Shown one piece after another: positions 11,990-50,094 of a stretch of 64,000 nt of DNA (position 1 is its first letter; each line of letters starts with the position of its first letter). The DNA comes from Escherichia coli (GTDB taxonomy: Bacteria; Pseudomonadota; Gammaproteobacteria; Enterobacterales; Enterobacteriaceae). The position numbers and the translations under genes were made by a program. The DNA lies in the NCBI RefSeq assembly GCF_003991155.1, contig NZ_CP031293.1. One strand, written 5' to 3'. The notes beneath the pieces are model-generated. The model saw only the letters and a list, made by a program, of their open reading frames with translations. It had not been told where the DNA came from and ran no database searches.

Positions 11990-12874
11990 TCAGAACAGAC
12001 GATCCCACAGTGTTTCCAGCAGGCGGATAATGCGGTCCCGGGCTTTACGCAGAAGCTGTAACATCCAGACCGGAAAAGTGAACCGGGCAACGGCGTCGTC
12101 AAAACTTTTCCCGATGGCGTCACCAAAAGTCTGTTGTGCGTGTTTCTGGGCCTGTTCAGAGCGGTTTTCCCCCCGGATATGTGAATAAACCGCACTGGTT
12201 GCCTGCGGTGGCAGGGCGTGGATCATCAGCGACACAAACGCCGGAAGATTCCAGCCGACAGGCGCAGCAACGGGGAGTACCGGAAATGATGACGGGAACA
12301 GGGTTGCCACCCTGGCTGTAACAGTTGCCAGTGAGAGTTCCTGGTGACGGGATGGGCATTTTTCTGTGGCATTCCATTCTTCAGCAGGAAACACGCGATC
12401 GGCATGGCTGAGAACAAACAGAAAACGCGAGGGATCTGCACCTTCATTCAGTAAAAACTGATGCATGGCAATATCGGCAGCATACGCACGTTCATCAGCC
12501 CGCAGGATCCAGATAATCAGATCCAGTTCCGGCAGTAACTGACGGTAAAGCTCCCGGTATTCCTGATCATGCTGCGGTGTCTCACCAATGCCGGGCAGAT
12601 CGACCAGCGTCATTCTGCGTTCACCAATCTGCAGGGTGAGGCGATGAGCCTGGCGGGTGCAGCCGTTCAGGGGATGCGTGGCGCAGATACGGGACTGAAA
12701 AATGGCATTACACAGACTGCTTTTGCCGGAGCCGGATTTACCCATAATGCCAATCACGGGCTCGTAATGAATAACACCGTGGAGATGTTCAAGGATTTTC
12801 TGGCGAATTTCTTCAGGAAGAAACGTCAGATATGATTTCACTTGCGCGGAGAGGGAAGAATTGCTGAATGGCAT
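11990..12874 (-). CDS. YfjP/YkfA-like GTPase
   Basis: 294 aa; P-loop GIMGKSGSGKSS and DLPG motif. Confidence 0.8.
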   Translation of the reverse strand: MPFSNSSLSAQVKSYLTFLPEEIRQKILEHLHGVIHYEPVIGIMGKSGSGKSSLCNAIFQSRICATHPLNGCTRQAHRLTLQIGERRMTLVDLPGIGETPQHDQEYRELYRQLLPELDLIIWILRADERAYAADIAMHQFLLNEGADPSRFLFVLSHADRVFPAEEWNATEKCPSRHQELSLATVTARVATLFPSSFPVLPVAAPVGWNLPAFVSLMIHALPPQATSAVYSHIRGENRSEQAQKHAQQTFGDAIGKSFDDAVARFTFPVWMLQLLRKARDRIIRLLETLWDRLF

Positions 12875-12974
12875 ACCGGTATCCTGTTGATTTCACTGAA
12901 CCGGATCACACTAATCCGGTTTATCATTCAGGTAATATGGGTGTGAAAATTTTTCCATTGACGGGAAGAAGAGT

Positions 12975-14198
12975 ATGGCTAAAAACAAAGGTATCTGTCG
13001 GAATAAAAAATGCAGTAATCCTGTTTCAGAATTTGATGAGGCAAATGCCTTAAGGTTATGCGATGATCATTATAAGCTATGGAAGCGAAATAAAGAGAAT
13101 CGTCGGGTCAGGAATATTTGTCGTATAATTAGTAGATATGACAAAAGTCTGGACTGGGAGATATTTTATAGAGTAAGAGATGCTGCAAAAAATAAAACGG
13201 GAAAGAGAATTATTGAGGACGCAAAAATATTACATCAATGGCGTGCTTCAAAGCAAGTAAGAAAAAGTTTTCACAAGGGTGTGCTTCGGTCACGGGAATG
13301 GCTTAATACACAGGAGTTACTGAGCAGAAAACATATATCTGTTACAGGTGAACTATTTAAATTTTACATAAAAGATATTATCAGATTATATTGCTATAAG
13401 TTTCTCTACAGCAGAGAATATCTTAATGAAAACGCATACAAAAAACGATATCAGAGAGATATTCACCCCAGAAAAGTTAATGTTCCGATACTGCAACTTG
13501 AAGTTGCATGGATAAATAATAATTGCCGCTCAAGTGATTCAAGCACTGATATTATTATCCTTCCGAGGATGATAAGAAGAATGGTTGTATTTAATTATAC
13601 GAAGATAAATAAACAATTAGAGAAAGTGTTGGGGGGGATAGCACGAAAACAAACCTCAGAAAGGAATAAAGGCGGTCTCTATACCAGAATAAAAAAAGAA
13701 AGTGACTTTCTTTCTATGGATAGATTTATGGTGGAAATAGAAAATATCATAAGACCTGAAAGGTTTCCTACATCAATTTATCCAGTCTTTTCACATTCAT
13801 TTATTGAACGAGAGCTTCCGCTACTGAATCTTGCCCGATCACAGTATAAAAGAGCAATAAGTAAAAGAGTGGCGAATTCAATTTTTTATACTTTGCAAAA
13901 AACTAACGTGGCATTATGGCTATATCTTGAAATGTTTGCTCTGGTGGCATTCATTAAACTGTATACAGGAAAAGGTTTTGAATTCATAAAGAACATGTGT
14001 GTATTTATCGATTATGAGAAAGGGATAATAAAATCCACACATGAAGAACTGCTGGGTGAAATTAAGCGTAACATTCAAGTGAATTTGAAGGTGAATCCTG
14101 ATAATTTTCCAGAGTTAATAGACATATACAATTCATGCTTTAGTGAAAATATATTGTCATATGATATTCAGGATGGTAATTTTAAATGGCGCTCATGA
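12975..14198 (+). CDS. Orphan hypothetical protein, 407 aa, AT-rich, lysine/arginine-rich with N-terminal Cys/His cluster
   Basis: Long uninterrupted ORF in strongly AT-rich DNA, divergent from the GTPase gene; no family recognised. Confidence 0.6.
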   Translation: MAKNKGICRNKKCSNPVSEFDEANALRLCDDHYKLWKRNKENRRVRNICRIISRYDKSLDWEIFYRVRDAAKNKTGKRIIEDAKILHQWRASKQVRKSFHKGVLRSREWLNTQELLSRKHISVTGELFKFYIKDIIRLYCYKFLYSREYLNENAYKKRYQRDIHPRKVNVPILQLEVAWINNNCRSSDSSTDIIILPRMIRRMVVFNYTKINKQLEKVLGGIARKQTSERNKGGLYTRIKKESDFLSMDRFMVEIENIIRPERFPTSIYPVFSHSFIERELPLLNLARSQYKRAISKRVANSIFYTLQKTNVALWLYLEMFALVAFIKLYTGKGFEFIKNMCVFIDYEKGIIKSTHEELLGEIKRNIQVNLKVNPDNFPELIDIYNSCFSENILSYDIQDGNFKWRS

Positions 14199-15434
14199 TG
14201 TAAAAATATTAATTTCACATTACATATTAATTATTCACAAAAAACATATAATTAATTTCAATGAGTTACATATAAAAATGTTGATGATTAGCCAGCTTAG
14301 TATGGTTATGCAATGTGATGCTTAACGCTTACAGATAATAACACATTCATATGAGCTATATATCATAATATTCAATAATCATGATATGCTAATCTGATTA
14401 TGGATAAAAATTACTGAATGACGCCATATTATGATTGGCAGTGTTTCCTGTATACGATGACTTATCTCTCCCGCATCATATGGGGGCACGTTTCTTAGGA
14501 AAAGTGACGGGGTTACAGAAGCCAATTACGATAGTTTGTTGTAGAGTTATCACGAGTTTTTGTTGTTCTGAAGACGGAATCAAAAAAATAATTCCAGAGT
14601 AAACCTGTCTGTTTTTTGACCAGTAAAGATCCATGCTGGCCGTGAAAAACTGAAATCAACACTCAGTCTGCATGGATGTCTGAAGATATTGAGAATGTCG
14701 GGAATGGTACTATATACGTATTATACAGACATATCTTCACTAAGTGTTATACACGCATTTTCATAAACAATTCTACAAGTGTTTTCATTAAGCATTGCTG
14801 TACACATTGTTTGATCTGATACACATCCAGTTTAGTAAATCTTTACGTTAGCTAAAATCAGTTTAAAGCTGCTACAAAACAATTTTTCTTGTTTAAGTAA
14901 TCAGGATGATATTCTATTTTTCTGAAGTTACGTTTAACCTTTTCTTAGTTTTTGTGTTTTTAGTCGTTAACCTGAGACAAGTGTCTTTATGTAAAAACGC
15001 AAATCCGGCTGAGATAACCTGGCGTGATTTACTGTGTGCTTACGATGATTTTGTTAAATGGTTTTATGGATGATTTTGTAACGATGAGATTGATGAGATG
15101 ATTAACTGGCCCTGGTGTTTTTTCTCAGCGCAAGACTCTTTTCAGGAAAAGCGTGATGATTGGTTCTGGTGTTTTGATTCAGATGAGGTTTACGTTATCG
15201 ATGGTTAACCGTTTTTATGGAGCGTAGTTAAAAGTAACGTTTTCAGTATAAGAAAATCGATTCTGATGTTGGTGGTTTTTGTTCTTGGGGCGGGGGTGTC
15301 TGTAAACAGGTTTTAATCGCGCTGTTCGGCTCTGTGATTGAGTTGTGTGGTTAAGCTGTAGGTGTGGTGTGATCTTACACAGCAATAGTGGACACGCGGC
15401 TAAGTGAGTAAACTCTCAGTCAGAGGTGACTCAC

Positions 15435-15734
15435 ATGACAAAAACAGTATCAACCAGTAAAAAACCCCGTAAACAGCATTCGCCTGAATTTCGCAGTGAA
15501 GCCCTGAAGCTTGCTGAACGCATCGGTGTTACTGCCGCAGCCCGTGAACTCAGCCTGTATGAATCACAGCTCTACAACTGGCGCAGTAAACAGCAAAATC
15601 AGCAGACGTCTTCTGAACGTGAACTGGAGATGTCTACCGAGATTGCACGTCTCAAACGCCAGCTGGCAGAACGGGATGAAGAGCTGGCTATCCTCCAAAA
15701 GGCCGCGACATACTTCGCGAAGCGCCTGAAATGA
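15435..15734 (+). CDS. insE: IS3 transposase OrfA
   Basis: [29 protein letters not shown]... matches IS3 OrfA; ORF-track start 15426 is an upstream GTG. Confidence 0.85.
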
Positions 15735-16597
15735 AGTATGTCTTTATTGAAAAACATCAGGCTGAGTTCAGCATCAAAGCAATGTGCCGCGTGCTCCGGG
15801 TGGCCCGCAGCGGCTGGTATACGTGGTGTCAGCGGCGGACAAGGATAAGCACGCGTCAGCAGTTCCGCCAACACTGCGACAGCGTTGTCCTCGCGGCTTT
15901 TACCCGGTCAAAACAGCGTTACGGTGCCCCACGCCTGACGGATGAACTGCGTGCTCAGGGTTACCCCTTTAACGTAAAAACCGTGGCGGCAAGCCTGCGC
16001 CGTCAGGGACTGAGGGCAAAGGCCTCCCGGAAGTTCAGCCCGGTCAGCTACCGCGCACACGGCCTGCCTGTGTCAGAAAATCTGTTGGAGCAGGATTTTT
16101 ACGCCAGTGGCCCGAACCAGAAGTGGGCAGGAGACATCACGTACTTACGTACAGATGAAGGCTGGCTGTATCTGGCAGTGGTCATTGACCTGTGGTCACG
16201 TGCCGTTATTGGCTGGTCAATGTCGCCACGCATGACGGCGCAACTGGCCTGCGATGCCCTGCAGATGGCGCTGTGGCGGCGTAAGAGGCCCCGGAACGTT
16301 ATCGTTCACACGGACCGTGGAGGCCAGTACTGTTCAGCAGATTATCAGGCGCAACTGAAGCGGCATAATCTGCGTGGAAGTATGAGCGCAAAAGGTTGCT
16401 GCTACGATAATGCCTGCGTGGAAAGCTTCTTTCATTCGCTGAAAGTGGAATGTATCCATGGAGAACACTTTATCAGCCGGGAAATAATGCGGGTAACGGT
16501 GTTTAATTATATCGAATGTGATTACAATCGGTGGCGGCGGCACAGTTGGTGTGGCGGCCTCAGTCCGGAACAATTTGAAAACAAGAACCTCGCTTAG
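15731..16597 (+). CDS. insF: IS3 transposase OrfB (DDE integrase domain; made as OrfAB fusion by -1 frameshift)
   Basis: 288 aa with DDE motif region (…HTDRGGQY…CYDNA…). Confidence 0.85.
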
Positions 16598-17643: not shown

Positions 17644-18163
17644 ACCCGGTAAAACAGCATCCGGTGCCTGAGCGTATACCACGGTCAGGACGTTGGCTGA
17701 CGCCCTTAGCTCGTTTTCTGATAATCGCCCTGAAGTCATGAAACGGTATTTTTATCTGCTTCCATTCTCATGTTCATATTTCCCCTTACACTTTCACTGT
17801 CTGTCATTGGAAGTACCGATTTATTTTGGTGCTGCTCACTTACTGCCATTCACGGAAGAGGATAGTGGTGAACCGTACGATCCTGACTGCTGGCGAGGGA
17901 AGGTTCAGAACTGGTATGAGGTTTAGTGCTGGAAGATGACTTTGAATCCCGGACTGAGCAGTGAGGGGGCAGTGGGAGGATGCTCTGGTGTAACAGGCCT
18001 GGATTGCAAAATACAAAACCGGTTGTACACTCGTAACGGGCAAAAGGATACGGGCAATAACACGTGGTACCCGGTGAGACAGGATCTTGTATCGCATTAC
18101 CGGGAATATTCTGACAGGTGAAATGTTCTGATAAGAATCATCCTGAGGGAGGATACAACGGAT

Positions 18164-18616
18164 ATGCACGTTATTAACAGCGGCATTCGTGATGTGAAAT
18201 TTGGTGAAAATGTGAAAGTCGTCATGCCAGTAAACCTCTATGAATGTGAACTGGGGGATGATGTTTTTATCGGTCCCTTTGTGGAAATACAGAAGGGATG
18301 CATCATTGGCAAGCGGAGCCGAATTCAGTCCCACAGTTTCATCTGTGAGAACGTCATTTTAGGTGATGGCTGTTTCATCGGTCATGGCGTAACTTTTGCT
18401 AATGATCTTTTTAAGTGTGGTGGTCCCGATGCCTCTGCAGAAAGCTGGATACGTATCGTATTAGGTAACACTGTAACAGTGGGTAGCGGAGCGACTATTT
18501 TAACAACAGAAATTTGCAGTGGAGCAGTGATTGGGGCTGGTAGTGTGGTTACAAAGCCCGTGCTGGTAAAAGGCGTGTATGCCGGTAATCCAGCCAGACT
18601 TTTGAGAACGCTTTAA
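18164..18616 (+). CDS. Hexapeptide-repeat (left-handed beta-helix) acetyltransferase
   Basis: 150 aa with repeated [LIV]G..[LIV] hexapeptide pattern. Confidence 0.65.
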   Translation: MHVINSGIRDVKFGENVKVVMPVNLYECELGDDVFIGPFVEIQKGCIIGKRSRIQSHSFICENVILGDGCFIGHGVTFANDLFKCGGPDASAESWIRIVLGNTVTVGSGATILTTEICSGAVIGAGSVVTKPVLVKGVYAGNPARLLRTL

Positions 18617-19151
18617 TTATTATATTTACAAATCGTAAGCCAGAATTGACTCCAGACCATTATGTGCCTTATTCACCATGAGTGAAATGCGGGATGAGCC
18701 TGCAAGTTAAGAGGATATCGGAAACCAGCAACCAGGGCAGTGAGAGCGCTGTCGGGGTCATTGATATCTCCGAAGGGAAGCCCTGGTATAAGGTGTTTGC
18801 ATAAAATTATTAAACAGGCTCATTTTTAGCGATCCTCATGAAATTCATCGTAACATCCTGAATATCTTATGGTGTTTCCTGTCATCTCCGGTATTTATTC
18901 CGTTCATGCAAATAACCTGATGAAACAGGGCAACGCCATAAAACCGGATAAGGACAACATGGATTAACGATAAAAATTGTGATCCTGTTTTCATTTTTCA
19001 CTTTTTGATTCTGGACTGGTATTTACATTTCTAAAAACAGGCATAAAGTGAACACATGTTTGATTTTGAATATATGTTCAACTCTATCTGCGTGGTCGAA
19101 TAGAAATACAGATTTATTATTTTTGTGTTTTTAAATGTCAGGAGATGTGCC

Positions 19152-20087
19152 ATGTGTGATAAGGAATACATCATCACAATTGGCTCTGCCAATATAGATA
19201 TAGCCGGATATTCGTATGCCTCCTTAAATTATGCTGATTCTAACCCGGGGAAGATTAAATTCACGCCCGGAGGTGTGGGGCGTAATATTGCACATAATCT
19301 TGCTCTGCTGGGTAAAAAATCATGGCTGATGTCAGCTGTGGGAGATGATTTCTACGGGCAATCATTATTAGCACAAACGACTCAGTCCGGCGTTAATGTT
19401 GATAAATGTCTGATTGTTAATGGAGAAAATACCTCAAGTTATTTATCACTTCTCGATAAAACCGGTGAAATGTTGGTGGCAATAAATGACATGACGATTA
19501 GTGAACATATTTCAGCTGAGTTTTTATCACAGCATATTGATTTTATTCAGGGAGCGAAGGTTATTGTTGCAGACTGTAATATCAGTGAGTCAACACTTGT
19601 CTGGCTACTGAATAATGCAGGTAAGGTTCCGGTATTTGTTGACCCGGTATCTGCATGGAAGTGTGTCAAAATTCGTGAACATTTAGCACAAATTCATACT
19701 CTCAAGCCCAACCGGCTTGAAGCAGAAACACTCAGTGGTATTTCGCTTTCAGATCGGAATGATGCTGAAAAAGTGGCGGTATGGTTCCATACACATGGTC
19801 TGAATCGCCTTGTGCTCAGCATGGGGGGGGATGGAGTTTATTACAGCGAACTGTACGGAGCCAGCGGCTGGTCGCCGCCAGTAAAAACACAGGTGGTGAA
19901 CGTTACGGGGGCAGGGGATGCCATGATGGCAGGGCTGGCTTCCTGCTGGGTTGATAATATGCCATTTATTGATTCCATTCGATTTGCACAGGGGTGTTCA
20001 TCAATGGCGCTGGCCAGTGAGTATACCAATAATCCTGAATTATCTGTTGCTAACGTTAAAAGCTTAGTGGAGAAACAGAATGTCTGA
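19152..20087 (+). CDS. PfkB-family kinase, pseudouridine kinase (PsuK/YeiC)-like
   Basis: ORF 19125..20087 trimmed to Met10 after an AGGAGA ribosome-binding site; PfkB motifs GGVGRNIA and GAGDA. Confidence 0.75.
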   Translation: MCDKEYIITIGSANIDIAGYSYASLNYADSNPGKIKFTPGGVGRNIAHNLALLGKKSWLMSAVGDDFYGQSLLAQTTQSGVNVDKCLIVNGENTSSYLSLLDKTGEMLVAINDMTISEHISAEFLSQHIDFIQGAKVIVADCNISESTLVWLLNNAGKVPVFVDPVSAWKCVKIREHLAQIHTLKPNRLEAETLSGISLSDRNDAEKVAVWFHTHGLNRLVLSMGGDGVYYSELYGASGWSPPVKTQVVNVTGAGDAMMAGLASCWVDNMPFIDSIRFAQGCSSMALASEYTNNPELSVANVKSLVEKQNV

Positions 20088-21015
20088 AATAACCATTTCT
20101 TCTGAATTACTGCAAATTTCACCGGAAGTACAGGATGCCATTAACAGTAAAAAACCTGTTGTTGCTCTCGAGTCAACAATTATCTCACATGGTATGCCTT
20201 TTCCTCAGAATGCTCAGACGGCTATTGAAGTCGAAGAAACTATACGTAAACACGGAGCAGTACCAGCCACCATTGCCGTTATTGGCGGTGTAATGAAAGT
20301 CGGGTTAAGTAAAGATGAGATTGAATTACTGGGTCGCGAAGGACATAACGTTACCAAAGTCAGTCGCCGGGATTTACCTTTCGTTATTGCTGAAGGAAAA
20401 CATGGTGCAACAACGGTAGCTTCAACCATGATTATTGCTGCTCTTGCCGGAATTAAAGTTTTTGCCACAGGAGGAATTGGCGGCGTTCATCGCGGTGCAG
20501 AACACACTTTTGATATTTCAGCCGACCTACAGGAACTGGCACATACTAATGTCACCGTGGTTTGTGCAGGCGCGAAATCCATTCTCGATTTAGGGTTAAC
20601 CACGGAATATTTAGAAACATTTGGTGTACCTTTAATTGGCTATCAGACAAGATCATTGCCGGCATTTTTTTGCCGCACCAGTCCGTTTGAGGTCAGTATA
20701 CGTCTGGACAGTGCAAAAGAGATTGCCCGCGCGATGGCAGTGAAATGGCAAACCGGCCTGAACGGTGGTCTGGTTGTTGCCAATCCGATTCCGGAAGCTT
20801 ACGCCATGGCGGAAGAGAAAATTAATGCAGCAATTGACCAGGCCGTAAAAGAAGCGGAAGTGCAGGGCATTACCGGTAAAGAAAGCACACCGTTCCTGCT
20901 GGCACGGGTGGCAGAATTAACCGGTGGTGACAGTCTGAAATCAAATATTCAGCTGGTATTCAACAACGCAGTTCTGGCCTGTGAGATAGCAAAAGAATAT
21001 CAACAAATTGTCTGA
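20080..21015 (+). CDS. Pseudouridine-5'-phosphate glycosidase (PsuG/YeiN, IndA family)-like
   Basis: 311 aa, collinear with PsuG; start overlaps the upstream kinase stop. Confidence 0.8.
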   Translation: MSEITISSELLQISPEVQDAINSKKPVVALESTIISHGMPFPQNAQTAIEVEETIRKHGAVPATIAVIGGVMKVGLSKDEIELLGREGHNVTKVSRRDLPFVIAEGKHGATTVASTMIIAALAGIKVFATGGIGGVHRGAEHTFDISADLQELAHTNVTVVCAGAKSILDLGLTTEYLETFGVPLIGYQTRSLPAFFCRTSPFEVSIRLDSAKEIARAMAVKWQTGLNGGLVVANPIPEAYAMAEEKINAAIDQAVKEAEVQGITGKESTPFLLARVAELTGGDSLKSNIQLVFNNAVLACEIAKEYQQIV

Positions 21016-21098
21016 TATAAATGAACGGGCAGTGTGAGGTCGCCCGAAATTACCTGAACCAGATTCCGTGTCTGGTTCAGGTATAAGGGGAGAGCATT

Positions 21099-22349
21099 AT
21101 GGACATCATGAGAAGTATAGTGGGAATGGCAGTATTGCTGATAATTGCATTTCTACTATCAGTGAATAAAAAACGTATCAGTTTACGTACCACAGGAGCT
21201 GCACTGGTTCTTCAAATCGCGATTGGTGGGATCATGCTCTATTTCCCCCCGGGGAAATGGCTGGTTGAACAGGCTGCACTGGGCGTACATAAAATTATGT
21301 CTTACAGTGATGCGGGCAGTGCCTTTATTTTTGGCTCTCTGGTAGGGGACAAAATGGACGTACTGTTCGATGGGGCGGGTTTTATCTTCGCCTTCCGTGT
21401 ACTTCCTGCCATCATTTTTGTTACAGCGCTTATCAGTCTGCTGTACTACATCAGAGTGATGGGGGGGCTTATCCGTATTCTGGGGGGGATTTTTCAGAAA
21501 GCTCTGAACATAAGTAAAGTTGAGTCATTTGTGGCAGTAACGACAATTTTCCTGGGGCAAAACGAGATCCCGGCAATTGTAAAACCGTTTATTAATCGTC
21601 TGAATCGTAATGAATTATTTACTGTCATCTGCAGTGGGATGGCTTCGATTGCCGGTTCAATGATGATCGGCTATGCCGGGATGGGGGTTCCGATTGACTA
21701 TTTGCTGGCGGCGTCGTTGATGGCGATCCCGGGGGGGATCCTTTTTGCCCGTATTCTGAGTCCGGCCACAGAAGAATCAAAAGTCACTTTTGAAAATCTT
21801 TCTTTCACTGATACTCCTCCCAAAAGTGTTATTGAAGCAGTGGCCAGCGGGGCGATGACCGGGTTGAAAATCGCTGTCGGAGTTGCAACGGTAGTGATGA
21901 CCTTTGTTGCTATTATTGCTCTGATTAACGGTATAATCGGTGGTATCGGAGGCTGGTTTGGTTATGGTAATATTACCCTTGAGGGCATTTTCGGCTGGAT
22001 TTTGGCTCCCCTTGCGTGGATCATGGGCGTTGACTGGGCGGATGCTTCACTGGCAGGAAGTCTGATTGGTCAGAAGCTGGCAATTAACGAATTTGTTGCT
22101 TATCTCAATCTTTCACCCTATTTACAGCCAGGCAGTACGCTTGATGTGAAAACCACCGCAATTATTTCTTTTGCACTGTGTGGTTTTGCCAACTTTGGCT
22201 CCATTGGTGTGGTGGTGGGTGCCTTTTCAGCCATATCACCTCAGCGTGCACCTGAAATTGCACAACTGGGCATGCGTGCACTGGCGGCGGCCACCCTGTC
22301 AAACCTGATGAGTGCGACTATCGCTGGTTTTTTCATTGGGCTGGCATAA
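21099..22349 (+). CDS. NupC-family nucleoside transporter (PsuT/YeiM-like)
   Basis: 416-aa polytopic membrane protein with NupC-like sequence. Confidence 0.8.
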   Translation: MDIMRSIVGMAVLLIIAFLLSVNKKRISLRTTGAALVLQIAIGGIMLYFPPGKWLVEQAALGVHKIMSYSDAGSAFIFGSLVGDKMDVLFDGAGFIFAFRVLPAIIFVTALISLLYYIRVMGGLIRILGGIFQKALNISKVESFVAVTTIFLGQNEIPAIVKPFINRLNRNELFTVICSGMASIAGSMMIGYAGMGVPIDYLLAASLMAIPGGILFARILSPATEESKVTFENLSFTDTPPKSVIEAVASGAMTGLKIAVGVATVVMTFVAIIALINGIIGGIGGWFGYGNITLEGIFGWILAPLAWIMGVDWADASLAGSLIGQKLAINEFVAYLNLSPYLQPGSTLDVKTTAIISFALCGFANFGSIGVVVGAFSAISPQRAPEIAQLGMRALAAATLSNLMSATIAGFFIGLA

Positions 22350-22367
22350 AAAATACAATCCCGGGTG

Positions 22368-23462
22368 TTACCCCCGGGATGTTTTTAACAGATATTGCGC
22401 GTTATTAACGGAAAGTGTTGGGTTATTGATGCTGGTGCTGGCACGTGACAGTGCTGCACATGCCATCGCAAAGTGAGCACTTTCCTGGAAACTACTTCCT
22501 TCCAGAAAACTGTAAAGCAGACCTGCCATAAAGCCATCATCTGCACCAAAGCTGTCCACAACGGCATGAACGGGCGGTGTGAGCAGAAATTGTTCTCCCT
22601 CTCTTTGGCTACAGAAAACGGATTCATCTCCCATCCAGACAAAAATCTGTTGCACACCCTGCTGATGTAGTGCGTTCACTGCGGTGAGTAGATCGGTCTC
22701 ATTGTTGACAGGGGAACCCCATAATATCTCCAGTTCTTTTTGTGTGGGTTTCAGGGTATGGATATGCGGAAGCCAGTTTTTTACATTAACAGCCTTAAAT
22801 TTCGACACTGTATCAATAAAAACGGGAATGCCGTCAGCGACCGTAAAGATCCATTCAAGGGCGGCAGGTGTCAGATTACAGTCAGCCAGCACCACGCCAG
22901 CGTGACGGATTAACATACGTGAGGCGTCCAGCAACTGCGGCGTCAGTTGTTGCAGAATATGGGTATCATTAATCGCCATCACTGTTTCTGCCTGTAGGTC
23001 GGCGATGGAGACATAAGTTGAAGTATTTTGTCCGTTCAGTCGAATACAATTGGTGACATTAACGCCGGCCAGGCGGGTCTGCTCCAGTAATGTTTCGCCA
23101 TAAAAATCATTGCCTACAGCAGATATCAGATGCACATTGCGGCCCAGAAGGGCGAGATTATGGGCGATGTTGCGTCCGACACCTCCGGCAGAGCAGTAAA
23201 TACTGCCCGGACTGGAGGATTTCTGTGGATAATGGATATCCGCCACCCCACGGATATCCATGTTAATCGCCCCAAGAACAACACAGTATTCCTGTTCTGT
23301 CAGGATGTAGCCTTTCCCTTTAATCGCACCTTTGCGCATCAGATCCATAATGTGTGCAGCAACACGCGACCGACTGATTTGTAAAATCTCAGCAATTTCA
23401 TTCTGCTGGATCAGTGGGTTGTGACGCAGGATCCTGAGTATCTCTTTTTCTCTGTTGTCCAT
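22368..23462 (-). CDS. HTH-domain + PfkB kinase fusion protein (YeiI-like)
   Basis: 364 aa; N-terminal winged-helix (ILRILRHNPLIQQNEIAEILQISRSRVAAHI) plus PfkB kinase motifs. Confidence 0.75.
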   Translation of the reverse strand: MDNREKEILRILRHNPLIQQNEIAEILQISRSRVAAHIMDLMRKGAIKGKGYILTEQEYCVVLGAINMDIRGVADIHYPQKSSSPGSIYCSAGGVGRNIAHNLALLGRNVHLISAVGNDFYGETLLEQTRLAGVNVTNCIRLNGQNTSTYVSIADLQAETVMAINDTHILQQLTPQLLDASRMLIRHAGVVLADCNLTPAALEWIFTVADGIPVFIDTVSKFKAVNVKNWLPHIHTLKPTQKELEILWGSPVNNETDLLTAVNALHQQGVQQIFVWMGDESVFCSQREGEQFLLTPPVHAVVDSFGADDGFMAGLLYSFLEGSSFQESAHFAMACAALSRASTSINNPTLSVNNAQYLLKTSRG

Positions 23463-23900
23463 GATTATGCAACTGCCTGTTCGGTTTTTCGTCAGCGATC
23501 ATCAAAGTAAATAGCTTCGTTTTTCCCGGTGAACGTGAAGCTAGGGGAGATTATACTTCCGGATGTTCATTCAGGGCAGAAGAATAATACATCAGTTAAT
23601 TTTCTGTTAGTACTTTGTAGTCGAATGTTTGGGGAGTGTGTCTGAATGACAGCCAGATGGAATGACTTTTTGTAGCCAGGTCATGACTACGACTCATACG
23701 CTATTCTTAATTCTTATTTCTTTCCATTATACGCAAGTATTTTTAATTTAGGTTTATTACTATAATTATATTCACTTTGTCTTTATTCACTCTGTTTTTA
23801 CTTACTCTCTATCTTTACTCATTCCATTACTCTGACCCTCACCCGATTATACTTACTCCCTTCCTTGTCTAATCTTCATTGCCACCATTATCATGGTATC

Positions 23901-23927
23901 CACCTTCTCCACCTTCTCCACCTTCTC
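23901..23927. repeat. Tandem repeat 3 x CACCTTCTC inside a ~200-bp polypyrimidine (CT-rich) tract
   Basis: Direct reading of sequence. Confidence 0.6.
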
Positions 23928-24762
23928 CTTCATTCAATCATAACTACTGTAATTCATACGATACTCAGATAAGTTATTTTACTACGTTGTTGCTAATATC
24001 TACCTGTTATCAGTCTTCACTGAAACAGCAATTGATTTTAGTCATTATCCATAATGAACTGTATTGACTTAACGATGATTGTTGTTGACCTGAAGTGTTT
24101 TAACTATTCTGGTAAATATCAATACTTCTGTCATCACTGATTAACTGGATGTTTACTCTTTGATAAGGTATCCATGATTTCGTCATGTTTAACAGCGCAG
24201 GATAAACAATGAAATTAACAGAGTGAATTCCTGATTATATTTGTTCGTTTCTGATTATCTTGTATGTTAAACAAAATGAAAATTATCCATCCATGGTATA
24301 TTTTATTCTGGTACCGTGTACCCGTTAACGCTCATGTTTTGAAGTGAGTTGTTTTTAACAGATTAAATGAGAGTGTATGATTTTATCAGGTTACAGATAT
24401 GTGTTGGCCTTGTACACGTTTTTGCAGACTCACTGAGAGCAAGTTTGTAGTTTATGATGTGATTGGTCGCAATATGTTTCTTAATCTCCAGGTAGTGGGG
24501 TTTTAGCTCGTATTTTACAGTATTTCGTGATGTTTTATTGAGTCTGTATTTTCTTTACTCCTCGTTTATCTCATCTCTTTAGCTAATACCATCAGATAAT
24601 CCATTTCTTTCTGCATAATGCTGCGTATCGTTAATAACCCGTCGTATCCATTCTGCTACAGCATGCCTGATAAATACCATCTGTAAGTTATTACCGTTAT
24701 GAGCGAAAGCATTAATTCGTTCACAGAGCTTAAAACATCATTAACTTTCAGGAGTCATCAAC

Positions 24763-29398: not shown

Positions 29399-30646
29399 TT
29401 AGCCAAATTTAGGTAACACGTTAAAGACGTTACCGAACCAGCATAAAATTACGGTTATACCAAAGAGAATGACAATCGCCGGAATAAGATTGCCGCCCCA
29501 GACTGTGAACATCTGATTGGGAAATTTCTTGCGGGCTTTGATTGCCAGCACTGCGGGAATAATGACCGCCCAGATGGTGGCGCACAGTCCGGCACCGCCG
29601 ATCCCGTAAATAAAGCCGTTCGGGAAGATCAGATACAACAACGCGGGTGGCAGGAAGGTTAACAGCACGGTTTTGAAACGCCCGGCGTGGGAGTTATCAA
29701 TCTTAAACAGATCCGCCAGATAATCGAACAATCCCAGCGTGACACCAAAGAACGAACTGGCAACAGCTAAGTTAGAGAACACCAGCAGGCAAAACTCGAT
29801 AATCCCATGCTGTTTGGTGCCGAGGAATGATTTCACCAGCGAATCAACGTTGCCGCCTGAGGAGATTATCGCCTTAAAGCTTTCTCGCGGGATATTCCCC
29901 ATCGTGCAATAGAGCCAGAAGAGATAAATCACCAGCGCCAGCAGCGAACCGAAGACCACGCTTTTGATTAGCTTATCTTTGCGTTTTCCATAGCAAATAA
30001 TCAGGCTGGGAATATTGCCGTGGAAACCAAATGACGCCAGACACACCGGCAAAGCCATAAAGATATACGGGAAGTAAGACTTACCCGCAGTGGAGCTGGC
30101 TGCATCGCGCAGAATGGAATAATCGGCCTGGAAGAAGAGAGAGCCAAACACGATCACAAAGGAGATAATCTTCAGCCCGAGGAACAATGAGGTAATACGA
30201 CTGGCGGCTAACGAACTTATCCACAATACGCTGGCAACGAAAATGGCTGTGCAGACTCCGACAATACGTGGATTAGCGTGATAACTCAGATTCATTGATA
30301 TCGTTTCGCTAATGATTGCGCCGTTAGCAGAAATATAGGCATAAGTGAGGATATAGAGAACGAAGGCAACGGTAATACCGCTGATAATGTTCCAGGTGTT
30401 ACCGATTAAATCTTTGGCGATGGTGTTAAAACTGGATCCGACGGGATAGTTTAAATTTGCTTCTAATAACAATAACCCGGAATGAAGCATTGAAAACCAG
30501 GCAATGATAAGGATAAAGGCTCCCCAGAAAAACCAGGCACCGGCAAGATCAACAGGTAAAGCAAACATCCCACCGCCAATTACCGTACCGGCTATAACCA
30601 TAACACCCCAAAATGCAGAGTGTTTTTTTTCAGCTTGTTCAGTCAT
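29399..30646 (-). CDS. tnaB: Low-affinity tryptophan permease TnaB
   Basis: 415 aa; matches E. coli TnaB. Confidence 0.9.
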   Translation of the reverse strand: MTEQAEKKHSAFWGVMVIAGTVIGGGMFALPVDLAGAWFFWGAFILIIAWFSMLHSGLLLLEANLNYPVGSSFNTIAKDLIGNTWNIISGITVAFVLYILTYAYISANGAIISETISMNLSYHANPRIVGVCTAIFVASVLWISSLAASRITSLFLGLKIISFVIVFGSLFFQADYSILRDAASSTAGKSYFPYIFMALPVCLASFGFHGNIPSLIICYGKRKDKLIKSVVFGSLLALVIYLFWLYCTMGNIPRESFKAIISSGGNVDSLVKSFLGTKQHGIIEFCLLVFSNLAVASSFFGVTLGLFDYLADLFKIDNSHAGRFKTVLLTFLPPALLYLIFPNGFIYGIGGAGLCATIWAVIIPAVLAIKARKKFPNQMFTVWGGNLIPAIVILFGITVILCWFGNVFNVLPKFG

Positions 30647-30737
30647 GATGCCACCTTTAGATGAAGGCTATTTTTATTATTGAGGATGTAGGGTAAGAGA
30701 GTGGCTAACATCCTTATAGCCACTCTGAGTGTTTTAA

Positions 30738-32153
30738 TTAAACTTCTTTCAGTTTTGCGGTGAAGTGACGCAATACTTTCGGTTCGTAGGTAAAGGTTAA
30801 CCCTTTAATATTCGCCGCGTTCTCTTTCACATGTTTAAAGGCTTCAATAATGAAGTCCATATGTGTTTGAGTATATGTTGCGCGCGGAATGGTTAAACGC
30901 AGCAGTTCAGCCGGGCATGGCAGTTGTTTACCGGTTTTCGGATCGCGGCCTAACAGGAAAGAGCCAATTTCTACCGCACGGATACCGGCGACTTTATACA
31001 GCTCGCAGGCCAGCGCCTGTGCCGGGAACTGATCTGCCGGGATATGCGGCAGTAGTTTACCGGCATCAACGAATGCCGCGTGACCGCCCGCCTGCTGGCA
31101 GACAACGCCAATCTCTTCCAGGCCATCGACCAGATACTGCACCTGCGCAATACGATAAGCCAGCCAGTCCAGATTCATGCCGTCATACAGACCTACCGCC
31201 AGACGCTCCATAGCGCCGCCTTCCAGGCCGCCATATGTCGGGAAGCCTTCCTGCACCACGCAAAGGGTTCTGCATTCGGTGTACACATCAAAGAAGCTGT
31301 CGTCTTTCATGCACAGCAGGCCGCCCATCGGCACCATCGCATCTTTCTTGGCGGACATCGCCAGCATATCGGCATATTTGTAGGTTTCGCGGGTGATTTG
31401 CTCGATGGTCCAGTCTTTGTATTCTGCTTCACGCTGCTTGATGAAATAGGCGTTTTCGGCAAAGCGTGCGGAGTCCATTACCACCGGAATATCGTATTTC
31501 TTCGCGATGCTGTACATCGCTTTTAAGTTTGCCAGTGAAACCGGCTGACCACCTGCGGAGTTACTGGTGATGGTTGCAACGATATACGGCACGTTATTCG
31601 GGCCAACTTCTTCAATACCGCGTTCTAATCCCTCAAGGTCAAAGTTGCCTTTAAAGTCGTAACGCACGCCCGTATCGAAGGCTTCTTTGATATAGACGTT
31701 ACGCACGGTACAGCCGTTAATCTGGCTATGGCCCTGCGTGGTATCAAAGAAATAGTTAGAGAACGCCACCATTTTGCTGCGATCCAGGCCTTTTTCCTGC
31801 TCGCGTTTTTTAATCAGTACCGGAATATAGATTTGCTCTGCACCACGGCCCTGGTGAGTCGGAATAGTGTATTGATAACCAAAGATATTTTTCACTGACT
31901 CGGCTAACGCGTAGTAGCTGCGGCTGCCGCTGTAAGCTTCGTCGCCGCGCATCATCGCGGCCTGCATACTCTGCGTCACCGCCCCGGTACCGCTGTCGGT
32001 CAGTAAATCGATAAACACATCTTCACTATCCAGCAGGAACGGGTTCATGCCGGCTTTAATAATTGCTTCTTCACGATAAGCGCGAGTGGTACGTTTTACT
32101 GGCTCAATAACACGAATGCGGAACGGTTCAGGGAGATGTTTAAAGTTTTCCAT
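30738..32153 (-). CDS. tnaA: Tryptophanase TnaA
   Basis: ORF 30738..32168 trimmed to [11 protein letters not shown] (471 aa); matches E. coli TnaA. Confidence 0.9.
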
Positions 32154-32359
32154 TACGTAATCCTTCATTTATTTTAAGGACAGAAAATTACGGAGATATT
32201 GCAAATGCAATACCCGATAGTTCGCTAAAATATTTGCAAGAGACATCATTTATAAAAATGAATGATAGTCTTTACAAAAGCAGAAATAAGATATGCCAAA
32301 CAGACAGGTTAGATGGAATTCAATCTATTTGACAAAAATGATGGTTACAGAAAGGCAAG

Positions 32360-32434
32360 TTAAGGGTGGTGTTCAACAATCTTGTTGTCGATATTGAACC
32401 ATTTTGAGGTCACACATATATGTAAGATATTCAT
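32360..32434 (-). CDS. tnaC: tna operon leader peptide TnaC (24 aa)
   Basis: Minus-strand ATG AAT ATC TTA CAT ATA TGT GTG ACC TCA AAA TGG TTC AAT ATC GAC AAC AAG ATT GTT … CCT TAA gives MNILHICVTSKWFNIDNKIV..P with Trp12 and Pro24, ~205 bp upstream of tnaA. Confidence 0.75.
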   Translation of the reverse strand: MNILHICVTSKWFNIDNKIVEHHP

Positions 32435-47205: not shown

Positions 47206-47541
47206 ATGTTTAGAACAGAAGACATCATCGATGAGATAACCCAATGGATTGATTCAAATTTACATAAGCCGCTGAAGATAGAGGATGTTGCTGCGCGGGC
47301 AGGATACTCGAGGTGGCATCTTCAGCGGATTTTTGTGCAGGTGAGAGAAATTAGCCTTGGGAAGTACATAAGAGATACGAAACTTAGACTTGCAGCAAAA
47401 GATCTTATCGCGACTAATGAGCCAGTGATGGTTATCGCCTTTAAATATGGATTCGATTCACAACAAACTTTTACTCGGATTTTCTTTAAAAAATATAAAT
47501 TGCCACCATTGAAATATAGGGTAATGACTCCAACTTATTGA
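47206..47541 (+). CDS. MarA/SoxS-like small AraC-family regulator, C-terminus replaced by IS1 insertion
   Basis: 111-aa ORF with two HTH motifs; its last 7 codons lie inside IS1. Confidence 0.6.
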
Positions 47542-48038
47542 TAGTGTTTTATGTTCAGATAATGCCCGATGACTTTGTCATGCAGCTCCACCGATTTTGA
47601 AAACGACAGCGACTTCCGTCCCAGCCGTGCCAGGTGCTGCCTCAGATTCAGGTTATGCCGCTCAATTCGCTGCGTATATCGCTTGCTGATTACGTGCAGC
47701 TTTCCCTTCAGGCGGGATTCATACAGCGGCCAGCCATCCGTCATCCATATCACCACGTCAAAGGGTGACAGCAGGCTCATAAGACGCCCCAGCGTCGCCA
47801 TAGTGCGTTCACCGAATACGTGCGCAACAACCGTCTTCCGGAGCCTGTCATACGCGTAAAACAGCCAGCGCTGGCGCGATTTAGCCCCGACGTATCCCCA
47901 CTGTTCGTCCATTTCCGCGCAGACGATGACGTCACTGCCCGGCTGTATGCGCGAGGTTACCGACTGCGGCCTGAGTTTTTTAAATGGCGGAAAATCGTGT
48001 TGAGGCCAACGCCCATAATGCGGGCGGTTGCCCGGCAT
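47535..48038 (-). CDS. insB: IS1 transposase InsB
   Basis: 167 aa matching IS1 InsB. Confidence 0.9.
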
Positions 48039-48232
48039 CCAACGCCATTCATGGCCATATCAATGATTTTCTGGTGCGTACCGGGTTGAGAAGCGGTGTA
48101 AGTGAACTGCAGTTGCCATGTTTTACGGCAATGAGAGCAGAGATAGCGCTGATGTCCGGCGGTGCTTTTGCCGTTACGCACCACTCCGTCAGTAGCTGAA
48201 CAGGAGGGACAGCTGATAGAAACAGAAGCCAC
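47957..48232 (-). CDS. insA: IS1 InsA
   Basis: 91 aa matching IS1 InsA (zinc finger CPSC…CSHC). Confidence 0.9.
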
Positions 48233-48522
48233 TGGAGCACCTCAAAAACACCATCATACACTAAATCAGTAAGTTGGCAGCATCACCGAAATATAGAAAC
48301 GCGGAAAGGAGAAAAAAACTTCACCAGCCCATGTCTTAAGTTCTGTCAGTATGGCTACAGCCTGTTTGCTGAGTGGCACAAGGTGTGGTGTTCGAATCTT
48401 GGTTCCCCAATGAGAGTTCAGGCGGTGTGGGCAAATAAAAAAGAAAACATAAATAAAACCATCCGACCGTTGGTGGGGCTGGATGGTTATTCATTATTTC
48501 TATGTCACTGAACTTTCATTCA

Positions 48523-49704
48523 TCAGATCTGCTCAGAAAGTGAATCAATGTAGTCAGCATACCACTGCATCATTTCACGGCGACCATCCAGATACTGGGC
48601 ATGATTATAGGTACCTCTGATAGCGTTTTTATCCATATGAGCTAACTGCATTTCAATCCAGGCAGAATTAAAGCCCTGTTCGTGCAGAATTGTACTCATG
48701 GTGTGTCTGAAACCGTGCCCTGTGAGTCTTCCCTTATATCCTAGTAATTCAATGACTTGGTTTATGCTTTCCTTACTAATTGGTTTGCGAGGATCGTTCC
48801 TACCGATAAAGACCAGAGGATGATGTTTTGAGATTGGTTCAAGTTGCTTAAATAGCGCAATGACCTGCTCAGAGAGCGGCACAATATGAGGTCGCTTCAT
48901 CTTCATTACTTCTGCCGGGATCTCCCATAATTTTGTCTCAAAATCGATATCCTCCCAGCGTGCGAAACGCAATTCTTGAGTTCGTACACCAGTTAGCATA
49001 ATGATTTGAGTGGCTGTCTTAGTGATAATACTTCCGGTATAACCCGCCAGATCATTGAGGAAGTGGGGAAGTTCATTAGCAGTAAGAAAGGGAAAATGTA
49101 CTTTTTTCGGTGTAGCTAAAGCACTGGCAAGATCGGGAGCAGGGTTGTAGTTAGCCCGACCAGTAACAATTGCATAGCGGAACACCTCTCCACAGCGCTG
49201 GCGGACCTTACGCATTTTCTCCAGAGCTCCACGTTTTTCCATTTTACGCAATGCTTCCAGTAACTCCATTGGTTTGATTTCAGCAATAGGGCGTTTGCCA
49301 ATATAGGGAAAAATATCTTTTTCAAAGGTATCAATGATTTCATCACGATAGCGTAATGACCACCGATCGGCTTTTGACTGATGCCATTCTCGAGCAACGG
49401 CCTCAAATGTGTTTTTCAAACTCATTTGCAGCGCGATTTTTTCTTCTTTTTTTGTCTCACCCGGATCGCATCCTGCAGCGAGGATTTTCCTAGCTTCACT
49501 GCGTTTTTCGCGAGCGTCGGCTAGAGTTACATCGGGGTATACGCCAATAGAAAGCATCTTTTCTTTGCCAGCAAAGCGGTACTTCATACGCCAATATTTA
49601 GAACCATTAGTGTTAATGAGTAGATACATACCGCCACCATCAGACAGCTTATAGGGCTTTTCTTTTGGTTTTGCGGTTTTCACTTTAATATCAGTTAACG
49701 CCAT
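48523..49704 (-). CDS. P4-type tyrosine integrase (site-specific recombinase)
   Basis: 393 aa; catalytic HGFRHT and C-terminal Tyr region; immediately adjacent to selC. Confidence 0.9.
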   Translation of the reverse strand: MALTDIKVKTAKPKEKPYKLSDGGGMYLLINTNGSKYWRMKYRFAGKEKMLSIGVYPDVTLADAREKRSEARKILAAGCDPGETKKEEKIALQMSLKNTFEAVAREWHQSKADRWSLRYRDEIIDTFEKDIFPYIGKRPIAEIKPMELLEALRKMEKRGALEKMRKVRQRCGEVFRYAIVTGRANYNPAPDLASALATPKKVHFPFLTANELPHFLNDLAGYTGSIITKTATQIIMLTGVRTQELRFARWEDIDFETKLWEIPAEVMKMKRPHIVPLSEQVIALFKQLEPISKHHPLVFIGRNDPRKPISKESINQVIELLGYKGRLTGHGFRHTMSTILHEQGFNSAWIEMQLAHMDKNAIRGTYNHAQYLDGRREMMQWYADYIDSLSEQI

Positions 49705-49998: not shown

Positions 49999-50023
49999 TT
50001 GGCGGAAGATCACAGGAGTCGAA
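49999..50023. repeat. attL core: 25-bp direct repeat overlapping the 3' end of selC
   Basis: Identical to 4873..4897. Confidence 0.8.
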
Positions 50024-50094
50024 CCTGCCCGGGACCGCTGGCGGCCCCAACTGGATTTGAAGTCCAGCCGCCTCACCGGAGACGACGATCTTCC
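50000..50094 (-). tRNA. selC: tRNA-Sec (selenocysteine tRNA)
   Basis: Reverse complement matches the 95-nt E. coli selC sequence GGAAGATCGTCGTCTCCGGTGAGGCGGCTGGACTTCAAATCCAGTTGGGGCCGCCAGCGGTCCCGGGCAGGTTCGACTCCTGTGATCTTCCGCCA. Confidence 0.95.

Follow-up and report, generated by a model that had tools for sequence, protein, structure and literature searches.

A probable horizontally acquired copy of the pseudouridine-salvage module on a tRNA-linked genomic island of Escherichia coli

The locus described here lies within a 64-kb window of Escherichia coli DNA (the whole stretch analysed, to which all coordinates refer). It holds five genes and the following features, in which primed names denote the island copies.

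18164-18616, plus strand: hexapeptide-repeat acyltransferase; open reading frame confirmed, an island-backbone gene adjoining the cassette and outside the module
18972-23497, no strand assigned: mobile four-gene psu cassette of 4.5 kb, from the psuK promoter through yeiI' and about 25-35 bp of the former nfo 3' end
18978-18993, plus strand: putative CRP-like site, TGTGA-N6-TTTCA, from sequence reading and an alignment of 19 psuK upstream regions
19022-19049, plus strand: predicted sigma-70 promoter of psuK'G'T', TTTACA-16 nt-TAAAGT, from a consensus scan
19050-19079, no strand assigned: tandem palindromic operators GAACACATGTTT (19050-19061) and GAATATATGTTC (19068-19079), directly 3' of the -10 element
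19152-20087, plus strand: psuK', pseudouridine kinase of the PfkB family, 311 aa, equivalog match to NF007355
20080-21015, plus strand: psuG', pseudouridine-5'-phosphate C-glycosidase, 311 aa, match to Pfam PF04227
21099-22349, plus strand: psuT', NupC-family nucleoside:cation symporter, 416 aa, match to TIGR00804
22358-22380, no strand assigned: bidirectional intrinsic terminator at the psuT'/yeiI' junction, 8-bp stem with T runs on both strands
22368-23462, minus strand: yeiI', winged-HTH and PfkB kinase-like protein, 364 aa, match to NF007416

All five genes named in a sequence-only reading of this DNA are present as open reading frames, with the psu families placed by curated cut-offs or Pfam. 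PsuK' scores 648.8 bits against NF007355 (cut-off 540; profile positions 1-310 of 313), PsuT' 507.3 bits against the NupC model TIGR00804 (cut-off 442), and YeiI' 732.1 bits against NF007416, the model for YeiI-type sugar kinases (cut-off 561; a full-length equivalog match), with an HTH_24 domain at residues 1-48 and a PfkB domain at 58-348. PsuG' matched none of the NCBIfam models and covers Pfam Indigoidine_A (PF04227) over its full length (E 2.9e-133, model positions 1-291 of 291). The psuK' reading frame opens at a GTG at 19125; the likelier start is the ATG at 19152, which has an AGGAG upstream and is also the RefSeq start. The overlap of psuK' and psuG' is 8 nt, and from the promoter, this overlap and the terminator psuK'G'T' look like one operon, as had been proposed. 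The YeiI-like gene, by comparison, had been read as divergent and is instead convergent, since psuT' and yeiI' lie tail to tail with stop codons 18 nt apart and share the bidirectional terminator.

The predicted psuK' promoter aligns with TTTACT and TACTAT elements that are conserved in all chromosomal orthologues. Across the 19 psuK upstream regions the TGTGA half of the CRP-like site is invariant, while its right half is TCATA or TCAAA on chromosomes and degenerate on the island. The two operators have the form GAACAnnTGTTY, are spaced 18 bp start to start, overlap the predicted psuK' transcription start, and occur as a pair only once in the window. In 57 of 57 Enterobacterales loci one such pair sits in this position at the kinase promoter, whereas shuffled sequence yielded 9.6 pairs per 836 kb. 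Where the two sites meet, the sequence may resemble a DeoR/GlpR-type arrangement of half-sites. The operator pair also lies upstream of the HTH-PsuK fusions of Yersinia, Serratia, Hafnia, and Photorhabdus, where the 18-bp spacing is kept, and two Woeseiaceae-type MAGs have it ahead of their HTH-psuK fusions at a spacing of 19 bp. A third MAG and Alkaliphilus have single matched operator sites before the fusion, with an AAAC-N4-GTTT motif ahead of the gene in Alkaliphilus.

Three comparisons bear on the limits of the cassette. The Citrobacter, Buttiauxella, and Escherichia chromosomal loci are homologous to the window at the nucleotide level over 18972-23487; the island variant of strain fS149a, which is 93% identical, shares with the window exactly the segment 18973-23497; and in a psu-less island the match to the window stops at 18620 and resumes from 23934. 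Judged by this homology, the 18972-23497 block is the functional and mobile unit, homologous end to end, promoter included, with the chromosomal fruA|psuK-psuG-psuT><yeiI|nfo segment, in which psuT and yeiI face each other. The acyltransferase had been thought to accompany the module, but it lies outside this 4.5-kb block, and either can be present where the other is missing: the MDR_56 island has the acyltransferase without psu, the fS149a cassette has the psu block without the acyltransferase, and no homologue of it was found beside psu in 57 other loci. Its matches are to generic left-handed beta-helix models, far under every curated cut-off, with the nucleotide-sugar N-acetyltransferases QdtC, WlbB, and VioB as best solved relatives (E about 1e-10). 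It was rejected as a part of the psu module and is unrelated island backbone.

The setting is that of a tRNA-associated genomic island, combining a tRNA gene and an integrase with mobility genes and a patchy distribution in the species. A tyrosine recombinase/integrase (48523-49704) adjoins tRNA-Sec (50000-50094), genes of a CP4-type island flank the psu locus, and IS elements are also present. Of 5426 complete E. coli genomes, 385 (about 7%) carry the island locus, with 376 records matching it at 99% identity or more, and 5392 have the core psuKGT genes, which bears out the view of an accessory, island-borne second psu locus. The same block adjoins cadC in another strain. On IncHI1A plasmids, psuKGT has been captured too, independently.

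The accessory copy is not a near-identical duplicate of the resident genes, as the sequence-only reading had also anticipated. Nucleotide identity between the island and core E. coli is about 77%, the proteins are 79% (PsuK'), 90% (PsuG'), 90% (PsuT'), and 75% (YeiI') identical to their core counterparts without notable indels, and dS against K-12 is at least 1.4, i.e. synonymous divergence is saturated. In a concatenated neighbor-joining tree, both island variants formed a long-branched lineage sister to C. amalonaticus and C. sedlakii with bootstrap 98, apart from Escherichia. Simple duplication of the core psuKGT genes was rejected on these grounds. C. amalonaticus and C. sedlakii were also the closest sequences found (82–86% for PsuK, 93–94% for PsuG, 92–94% for PsuT, and 81–82% for YeiI), and the species-representative genomes held no donor whose PsuK identity exceeded 86%, so the source lineage is unsampled. 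Divergence of the island from the core is the ordinary divergence between orthologues of different genera. Nor is the YeiI-like gene an accompaniment special to the island, as had been supposed: psuKGT><yeiI lies between fruA and nfo in Citrobacter, Klebsiella, Enterobacter, Kosakonia, Leclercia, Buttiauxella, Kluyvera, and E. albertii, while in core E. coli yeiL-rihB-nupX is inserted into this layout, and on this distribution psuKGT><yeiI is the ancestral chromosomal arrangement in most Enterobacteriaceae. For all four genes dN/dS was 0.02–0.14, also between the two island variants, where dS was 0.09–0.42, and the latter comparison therefore points to purifying selection after capture. These patterns are consistent with a locus that is probably an intact version of the ordinary pseudouridine-salvage module of enterobacteria, gained by horizontal transfer. 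The ancestral chromosomal block between fruA and nfo would have been taken up a single time, together with its promoter, from an enterobacterium resembling Citrobacter, and would now be carried by CP4-type islands at tRNA sites, at selC here and beside cadC elsewhere.

The substrate of the cassette is most likely pseudouridine itself, with enzyme activities and the transported substrate predicted from conserved residues and families. PsuK' keeps all ten contact residues (N14, D16, S30, N45, Y97, M114, N143, V166, S167, and K170) and the GAGD motif, identical to K-12 PsuK; the pseudouridine-contact residues of EcPsuK, including the recognition residues Ser30, Asn143, and Lys170, have been described (PMC9247573, PMC9061257). 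PsuG' keeps all nine listed EcPsuG residues (E31, K93, T130, D145, S147, K166, T270, L274, and N289), and its 33 substitutions relative to K-12 include none at catalytic or ligand positions; in PsuG, Lys166 forms the Schiff base, Glu31 is the proton donor, Asp145 binds metal, Lys93 and Ser147 contact phosphate, and Thr130 contacts uracil N1 (PMC10761123). PsuT' is 90% identical to PsuT, compared with 84% to the paralogue NupX, and core PsuT is itself annotated in K-12 as a “putative” pseudouridine transporter. Pseudouridine would thus be imported by PsuT', phosphorylated to ΨMP by PsuK', and cleaved at the C-C glycosidic bond by PsuG' through Schiff-base chemistry at Lys166 to yield uracil and ribose-5-phosphate. 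It had been suggested that the accessory module diverged to import and degrade another C-nucleoside or modified nucleoside, such as a substituted pseudouridine (N1-methyl or other) or a C-nucleoside antibiotic. The stronger divergence of PsuK' and YeiI' from the core, the long branch of the island lineage, and the finding that the EcPsuK pocket already accommodates m1Ψ (PMC9247573), which makes small shifts of preference conceivable, could be taken that way. However, the first-shell residues of both enzymes are identical to those of the characterised E. coli proteins, the transporter is close to PsuT, and the divergence equals that among neighbouring-genus orthologues at the same syntenic core locus. 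Because the contact residues are all kept and dN/dS shows neither relaxation nor positive selection, a different C-nucleoside substrate is unsupported and we regard it as highly improbable. A neutral passenger, non-functional or unexpressed and slowly decaying on a successful island, would be consistent with the frameshifted psuK of the fS149a variant, with strain Rb-50, in which only a truncated yeiI' remnant persists beside an IS3 element, and with the degenerate CRP-like half-site. It would also fit the fact that no convincing yeiI' promoter was seen within about 600 bp upstream, where the native upstream gene nfo has been lost, so that yeiI' expression is uncertain. This explanation too appears improbable, given that the four reading frames are intact in the window, that no pseudogene flag appears in the RefSeq feature tables examined, that neither the promoter nor either operator has been lost, and that the locus recurs in so many nearly identical records with low dN/dS between its variants. 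An intact pseudouridine module is thus the preferred reading, most likely an ordinary spare set of xenologous accessory genes for a pathway already known, with no new chemistry.

The yeiI' product is most likely a ligand sensor derived from a kinase and bearing an HTH domain, as opposed to a second kinase of the catabolic pathway. YeiI' keeps the pseudouridine-contact residues except for M114T, and the anion-hole motif GAGD is changed to GADD in YeiI' and in 23 of 24 YeiI orthologues, while the fusion proteins retain GAGD. Within YeiI the HTH domain is better conserved than the kinase-like domain (92.8% vs. 81.1%), and across taxa a palindromic operator at the promoter co-occurs with the HTH domain, whether in YeiI or in HTH-PsuK. 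This suggests a link between YeiI and the operators, in which binding and effector are read from co-occurrence and another regulator is possible. Tentatively, and with chances we would put close to even, YeiI is a kinase turned ligand sensor and not a kinase in practice, a pseudouridine-responsive repressor at the tandem GAACAnnTGTTY operators that arose when a bifunctional HTH-PsuK split into PsuK and YeiI. YeiI' would bind both operators and leave them once pseudouridine (or ΨMP) is bound. Alternatively, YeiI' may be an active second kinase for another ribonucleoside or sugar, with the HTH as an accessory and the operators bound by a different transcription factor. YeiI retains the catalytic Asp of G-A-x-D together with the residues that contact ribose and base, the NCBIfam name is just “sugar kinase”, machine-learning predictors label YeiI a pseudouridine kinase (PMC12506659), and the pathway kinase of Yersinia, Serratia, and their relatives has to be the HTH-fused protein itself. 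We consider this rather unlikely, as conservation within YeiI is highest in the HTH, the change to GADD has become fixed in no lineage but that of YeiI, and the operator tracks the HTH domain between orders and even phyla without another shared neighbouring regulator; moreover, where PMC12506659 cites Preumont 2008, a psuK mutant with yeiI intact is described as unable to use pseudouridine. If the repressor role is correct, the island cassette would be a complete self-regulating module, and, with about 89% identity between the HTH domains and operators that hardly differ, cross-talk with the core locus would be predicted.

The benefit of the cassette could be extra or differently regulated capacity for pseudouridine, a nutrient plentiful in the gut and in urine. 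[quoted passage not shown] We place this SNP at or beside the -35 hexamer, with an uncertain coordinate offset.

Compared with psuK-psuG-psuT (yeiC-yeiN-yeiM) of K-12, the island copy has the same three families, gene order, and psuK/psuG overlap, the same promoter architecture (-35 TTTACx, -10, and two tandem operators), and identical catalytic and ligand residues, but it lies on a tRNA-linked island rather than between fruA and yeiL, has yeiI' as its immediate next gene in place of yeiL-rihB-nupX, and differs in its degenerate CRP-like right half. The fruA|psuKGT><yeiI|nfo block of C. amalonaticus and C. sedlakii has an identical four-gene layout and orientation, with homology covering exactly the cassette; however, nucleotide identity is only about 78–81%, so these species are not the actual donor, and the island copy sits in island DNA without fruA and with nfo reduced to the short remnant. 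YeiI' resembles E. coli YeiI (b2160, an uncharacterised HTH-PfkB “putative sugar kinase”) in its HTH_24 and PfkB domains, GADD motif, and M114T, at 75% identity overall and 89% in the HTH domain, and differs in having no preceding nfo and in lying tail to tail with a psu transporter gene, whereas core yeiI adjoins nupX. Finally, the HTH-PsuK fusions encoded by the first psu-operon gene in Yersinia, Serratia, Hafnia, Photorhabdus, Woeseiaceae, and Alkaliphilus share with the cassette the HTH domain, the pseudouridine-contact residues, and upstream operators, typically as a tandem pair; they combine HTH and GAGD in one protein, whereas in Enterobacteriaceae and in the cassette these roles appear to be split between PsuK, without an HTH, and YeiI, with an HTH and an altered motif.

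The stretch is a selC island. All five of the genes that the sequence-only reading had described in and beside its pseudouridine (psu) locus were present in a six-frame ORF list and their families agree with curated models; these genes, their control sites and the island end are as follows.

18164-18616, + strand: hexapeptide-repeat acyltransferase, 150 aa, from the six-frame ORF list
19050-19061: palindromic site 1, GAACACATGTTT, directly 3' of the -10 hexamer
19068-19079: palindromic site 2, GAATATATGTTC, 18 bp from site 1
19125-20087, + strand: psuK', PfkB kinase; the ORF opens with GTG at 19125, and the RefSeq start is the ATG at 19152 behind AGGAG
20080-21015, + strand: psuG', Indigoidine_A family, overlapping psuK' by 8 nt
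21099-22349, + strand: psuT', NupC-type transporter
22358-22380: bidirectional terminator common to psuT' and yeiI'
22368-23462, - strand (opposite to the others): yeiI', HTH-PfkB protein, 364 aa
48523-49704: tyrosine recombinase
50000-50094: tRNA-Sec

Matches were 648.8 bits for psuK' against the PsuK equivalog NF007355 (cut-off 540), 507.3 bits for psuT' against NupC TIGR00804 (cut-off 442), 732.1 bits for yeiI', with its HTH_24 and PfkB domains, against the YeiI-type "sugar kinase" NF007416 (cut-off 561), and E 2.9e-133 for psuG' against Pfam PF04227. The HTH-PfkB gene had been read as divergent; it is convergent with the transporter gene, with 18 nt between the stop codons and the terminator in common. 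An Rfam scan of the psuK' leader (~95 nt) and of the non-coding 1.3 kb at 23463-24762 gave no riboswitch or sRNA, only a sub-threshold chance match to a yeast snoRNA. The latter stretch, which separates yeiI' from the following YagK/YfjJ gene, is AT-rich with no ORF of at least 80 aa; 23498-23933 within it is specific to psu-carrying islands, and a short CACCTTCTC repeat occurs three times around 23903-23929.

Several comparisons define the unit that moved. Nucleotide homology with enterobacterial chromosomes begins at 18972, ~180 bp 5' of psuK', and stops at 23487, ~25 bp past the yeiI' start codon, which corresponds to the nfo 3' end on those chromosomes. A second island variant in strain fS149a (93% nucleotide identity, IS-flanked, near yjhF) has exactly 18973-23497 in common with the window, and the psu-less island of MDR_56 matches the window up to 18620 and then again only from 23934. 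Together these limits indicate that the mobile unit is a 4.5-kb cassette of four genes (18972-23497), captured once. At its borders blastx gave no significant remnants of fruA, nfo, yeiL or rihB, ~25-35 bp past the yeiI' start still aligning at the nucleotide level, and no direct or inverted repeats that would mark transposition or integration were found flanking 18972 and 23497. The acyltransferase gene lies outside the cassette, is present without psu genes in MDR_56 and is missing in the fS149a copy, so that the functional link to the psu genes proposed from sequence is not supported. Modification of a nucleoside substrate by this enzyme was rejected on the same distribution and boundary evidence. 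The protein has only generic left-handed beta-helix family matches, far under any cut-off, and its nearest solved relatives are nucleotide-sugar N-acetyltransferases (E ~1e-10).

The proposal of an accessory second locus in E. coli was borne out: core psuKGT is present in 5392 of 5426 complete E. coli genomes and the island stretch, scored as at least 80% of 18000-23600, in 385 (7%), mostly at 99% identity or more, so that at least nine in ten carriers have both loci. A simple duplication of the core locus, which had been named as the refuting outcome and would appear as near-identity, is ruled out by nucleotide identity of ~77% and by protein identities to the core genes of 79% for PsuK', 90% for PsuG', 90% for PsuT' (84% to the paralogue NupX) and 75% for YeiI' (strain PI7 as reference; K-12 values are the same). 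The core layout of psuK, psuG and psuT convergent with yeiI, between fruA and nfo, is exactly the four-gene layout of the island, and was found, through a one-genome-per-species scan and subsequent tblastn synteny, in Citrobacter, Klebsiella, Enterobacter, Kosakonia, Leclercia, Buttiauxella, Kluyvera and Pseudocitrobacter and also in E. albertii; E. coli itself and a handful of others, in contrast, have yeiL-rihB-nupX between psuT and yeiI, an insertion that the cassette lacks. In a concatenated neighbour-joining tree (Kimura distance, numpy, 1403 columns, 200 bootstraps) the two island variants cluster together (bootstrap 100) and apart from the Escherichia clade; their sister group is C. amalonaticus with C. 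sedlakii (bootstrap 98). The cassette is most probably a xenologue, not a paralogue arisen in situ. No donor was identified among 100,044 species-representative genomes, and the best identities found, 86% for PsuK, 94% for PsuG, 94% for PsuT and 82% for YeiI, suggest that the true donor is unsampled. Between the two variants yeiI' (12401-13495 in the fS149a island, L080, against 22368-23462 here) has 88% amino acid identity and dS 0.42, far more divergence than in psuG' and psuT' (99%, dS ~0.1), which suggests a mosaic history or recombination inside the cassette. The core locus is itself unusually diverse within Escherichia: 1187 genomes match the PI7 allele at only 80-90% nucleotide identity, and K-12 and E. 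albertii differ in psuK by a dS of ~1.2, a possible sign of divergent alleles or of recombination there.

The island runs from setC through CP4-type genes (YeeU/CbtA toxin-antitoxin, antirestriction, DUF932 and others), IS3, an inovirus-Gp2/YagK-type gene, the acyltransferase and psu genes, a second YagK/YfjJ gene, a tnaCAB copy, IS66 remnants and a tetronate-type sugar-acid cluster to IS1, the tyrosine recombinase and tRNA-Sec. The acyltransferase-psu block recurs at 98.8% identity in another strain, WP4-W18-ESBL-09, in an island adjoining cadC; there (L001:31731-45601) ~6 kb separate it from a propanediol-utilisation microcompartment locus of the glycyl-radical type (grpI-grpS), suggesting that the psu cassette travels in mosaic "metabolic" islands. 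The IS3-family element at 15426-16597 is an insertion relative to this otherwise 98.8%-identical island, and the IS1 at ~47535-48300 is likewise missing from the closest matching genomes. The tnaC-tnaA-tnaB copy (tryptophanase operon; 29399-32434, - strand) is bordered by insertion-sequence (IS66) and pseudogene remnants (pieces of melA and bgl), and its RefSeq protein accessions differ from those associated with the core genes. No island-type cassette was found on plasmids, every plasmid match being at 77% identity or less, i.e. core-type or unrelated.

A different substrate had been suggested for the second copy. The pseudouridine-contact residues of E. coli PsuK are Asn14, Asp16, Ser30', Asn45, Tyr97, Met114, Asn143, Val166, Ser167 and Lys170 (PMC9247573, PMC9061257), and those with assigned roles in E. 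coli PsuG are Glu31, Lys93, Thr130, Asp145, Ser147, Lys166, Thr270, Leu274 and Asn289 (PMC10761123). All ten are identical in PsuK', together with the GAGD motif, and all nine in PsuG', which leaves a changed substrate without sequence support; moreover, the divergence is that between neighbouring-genus orthologues with the same job. By every criterion tested, all read from sequence, the cassette is a predicted member of the characterised E. coli PsuK/PsuG pathway with PsuT and YeiI. Nei-Gojobori dN/dS was 0.02-0.08 against Citrobacter or K-12 orthologues; the island variants compared with each other gave 0.02-0.14 at dS 0.09-0.42, which indicates that purifying selection went on after capture. 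Some copies decay: fS149a psuK is frameshifted and yeiI' in Rb-50 is truncated beside IS3. RefSeq already gives the cassette genes the same names, so that the locus changes little; considered by itself it adds a spare, xenologous copy to a well-characterised pathway of two enzymes and their transporter, and it serves as a worked example that a second copy alone is no ground for inferring a new substrate.

The rationale for an island copy seems to be a mundane one of dosage or altered regulation. In evolution experiments in the mouse gut a recurrent A>C change between psuK and fruA increased in most animals and affected growth (PMC9509342, PMC7518454). This SNP, 2257444 A>C, appears to map ~122-127 nt upstream of psuK in K-12, within the -35 hexamer TTTACT or next to it, the offset from NC_000913.2 to.3 being approximate and the exact base uncertain; a hit on the third T would give TTGACT, an up-promoter mutation. 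On large IncHI1A plasmids an IS-flanked segment of the core type, psuK-psuG-psuT-yeiL, marks a separate mobilisation of the psu pathway; in NZ_CP063342.1 (15687-28914) and further IncHI1A plasmids of E. coli it lies beside an IS4-family (ISVsa5) element. Together the SNP and this capture suggest that extra or up-regulated psu capacity is selected repeatedly. Genes for pseudouridine catabolism have been mobilised more than once in E. coli, in tRNA-linked islands and separately on IncHI1A plasmids, which fits the psuK promoter-region sweeps in the gut, and pseudouridine salvage may genuinely affect fitness where E. coli lives with a host.

The most interesting point left by the locus is a testable assignment, of yeiI as the putative regulator of the psu operon. 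YeiI has been called uncharacterised (PMC9061257, PMC12506659). A phylogenetic footprint across 19 psuK upstream regions is kept in the island copy, with a CRP-like left half, TGTGA, that is invariant in all 19 (the island right half is degenerate) and a predicted promoter at 19022-19049 (-35 TTTACA, 16 nt, -10 TAAAGT; -35 TTTACx across the alignment). A tandem pair of such sites, here GAACACATGTTT and GAATATATGTTC, occurs exactly once in the 64-kb window, and all of the Enterobacterales loci (57 of 57) have one at the promoter of the kinase gene, against 9.6 pairs per 836 kb in shuffled loci. Another factor could bind these sites. The HTH domain of YeiI (residues 1-55) is better conserved than its kinase-like domain (92.8% vs 81.1% mean pairwise identity in Enterobacteriaceae), and its pseudouridine-contact residues are kept except Met114, which is Thr. 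No obvious promoter lies near yeiI', and the upstream nfo is gone. Because the mobile unit has four genes, not three, and retains the operator footprint, a regulatory role is a concrete and cheaply testable proposal for this long-standing orphan.

Comparison with other taxa is consistent with regulation by YeiI. Yersinia, Serratia, Hafnia and Photorhabdus are without a separate yeiI, and their first operon gene is a 363-aa HTH-PsuK fusion (canonical GAGD) with the same pair at the same 18-bp spacing just upstream. Two Woeseiaceae-type MAGs have a AAACAnnTGTTT pair, 19 bp apart, 5' of a fusion gene ~38-40% identical, and a third such MAG and an Alkaliphilus (Firmicute) MAG have one matched site each upstream of the fusion; a fusion kinase is upstream of psuG at L036-L062 (e.g. 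L045:6842-7933), L063, L064, L066 and L067, psu loci of other taxa. This suggests that the operator accompanies this HTH domain even between distantly related taxa. An ancestral bifunctional HTH-PsuK may have duplicated, one duplicate shedding the HTH domain and remaining a kinase (PsuK), the other retaining HTH domain and ligand pocket to become a sensor-regulator (YeiI). Of 24 YeiI orthologues, 23 have GADD as the anion-hole motif, where PsuK and the fusions have GAGD. PsuK and YeiI are separate proteins in Enterobacteriaceae, whereas Yersinia, Serratia, Hafnia, Photorhabdus and the MAGs have a single HTH-PsuK fusion.
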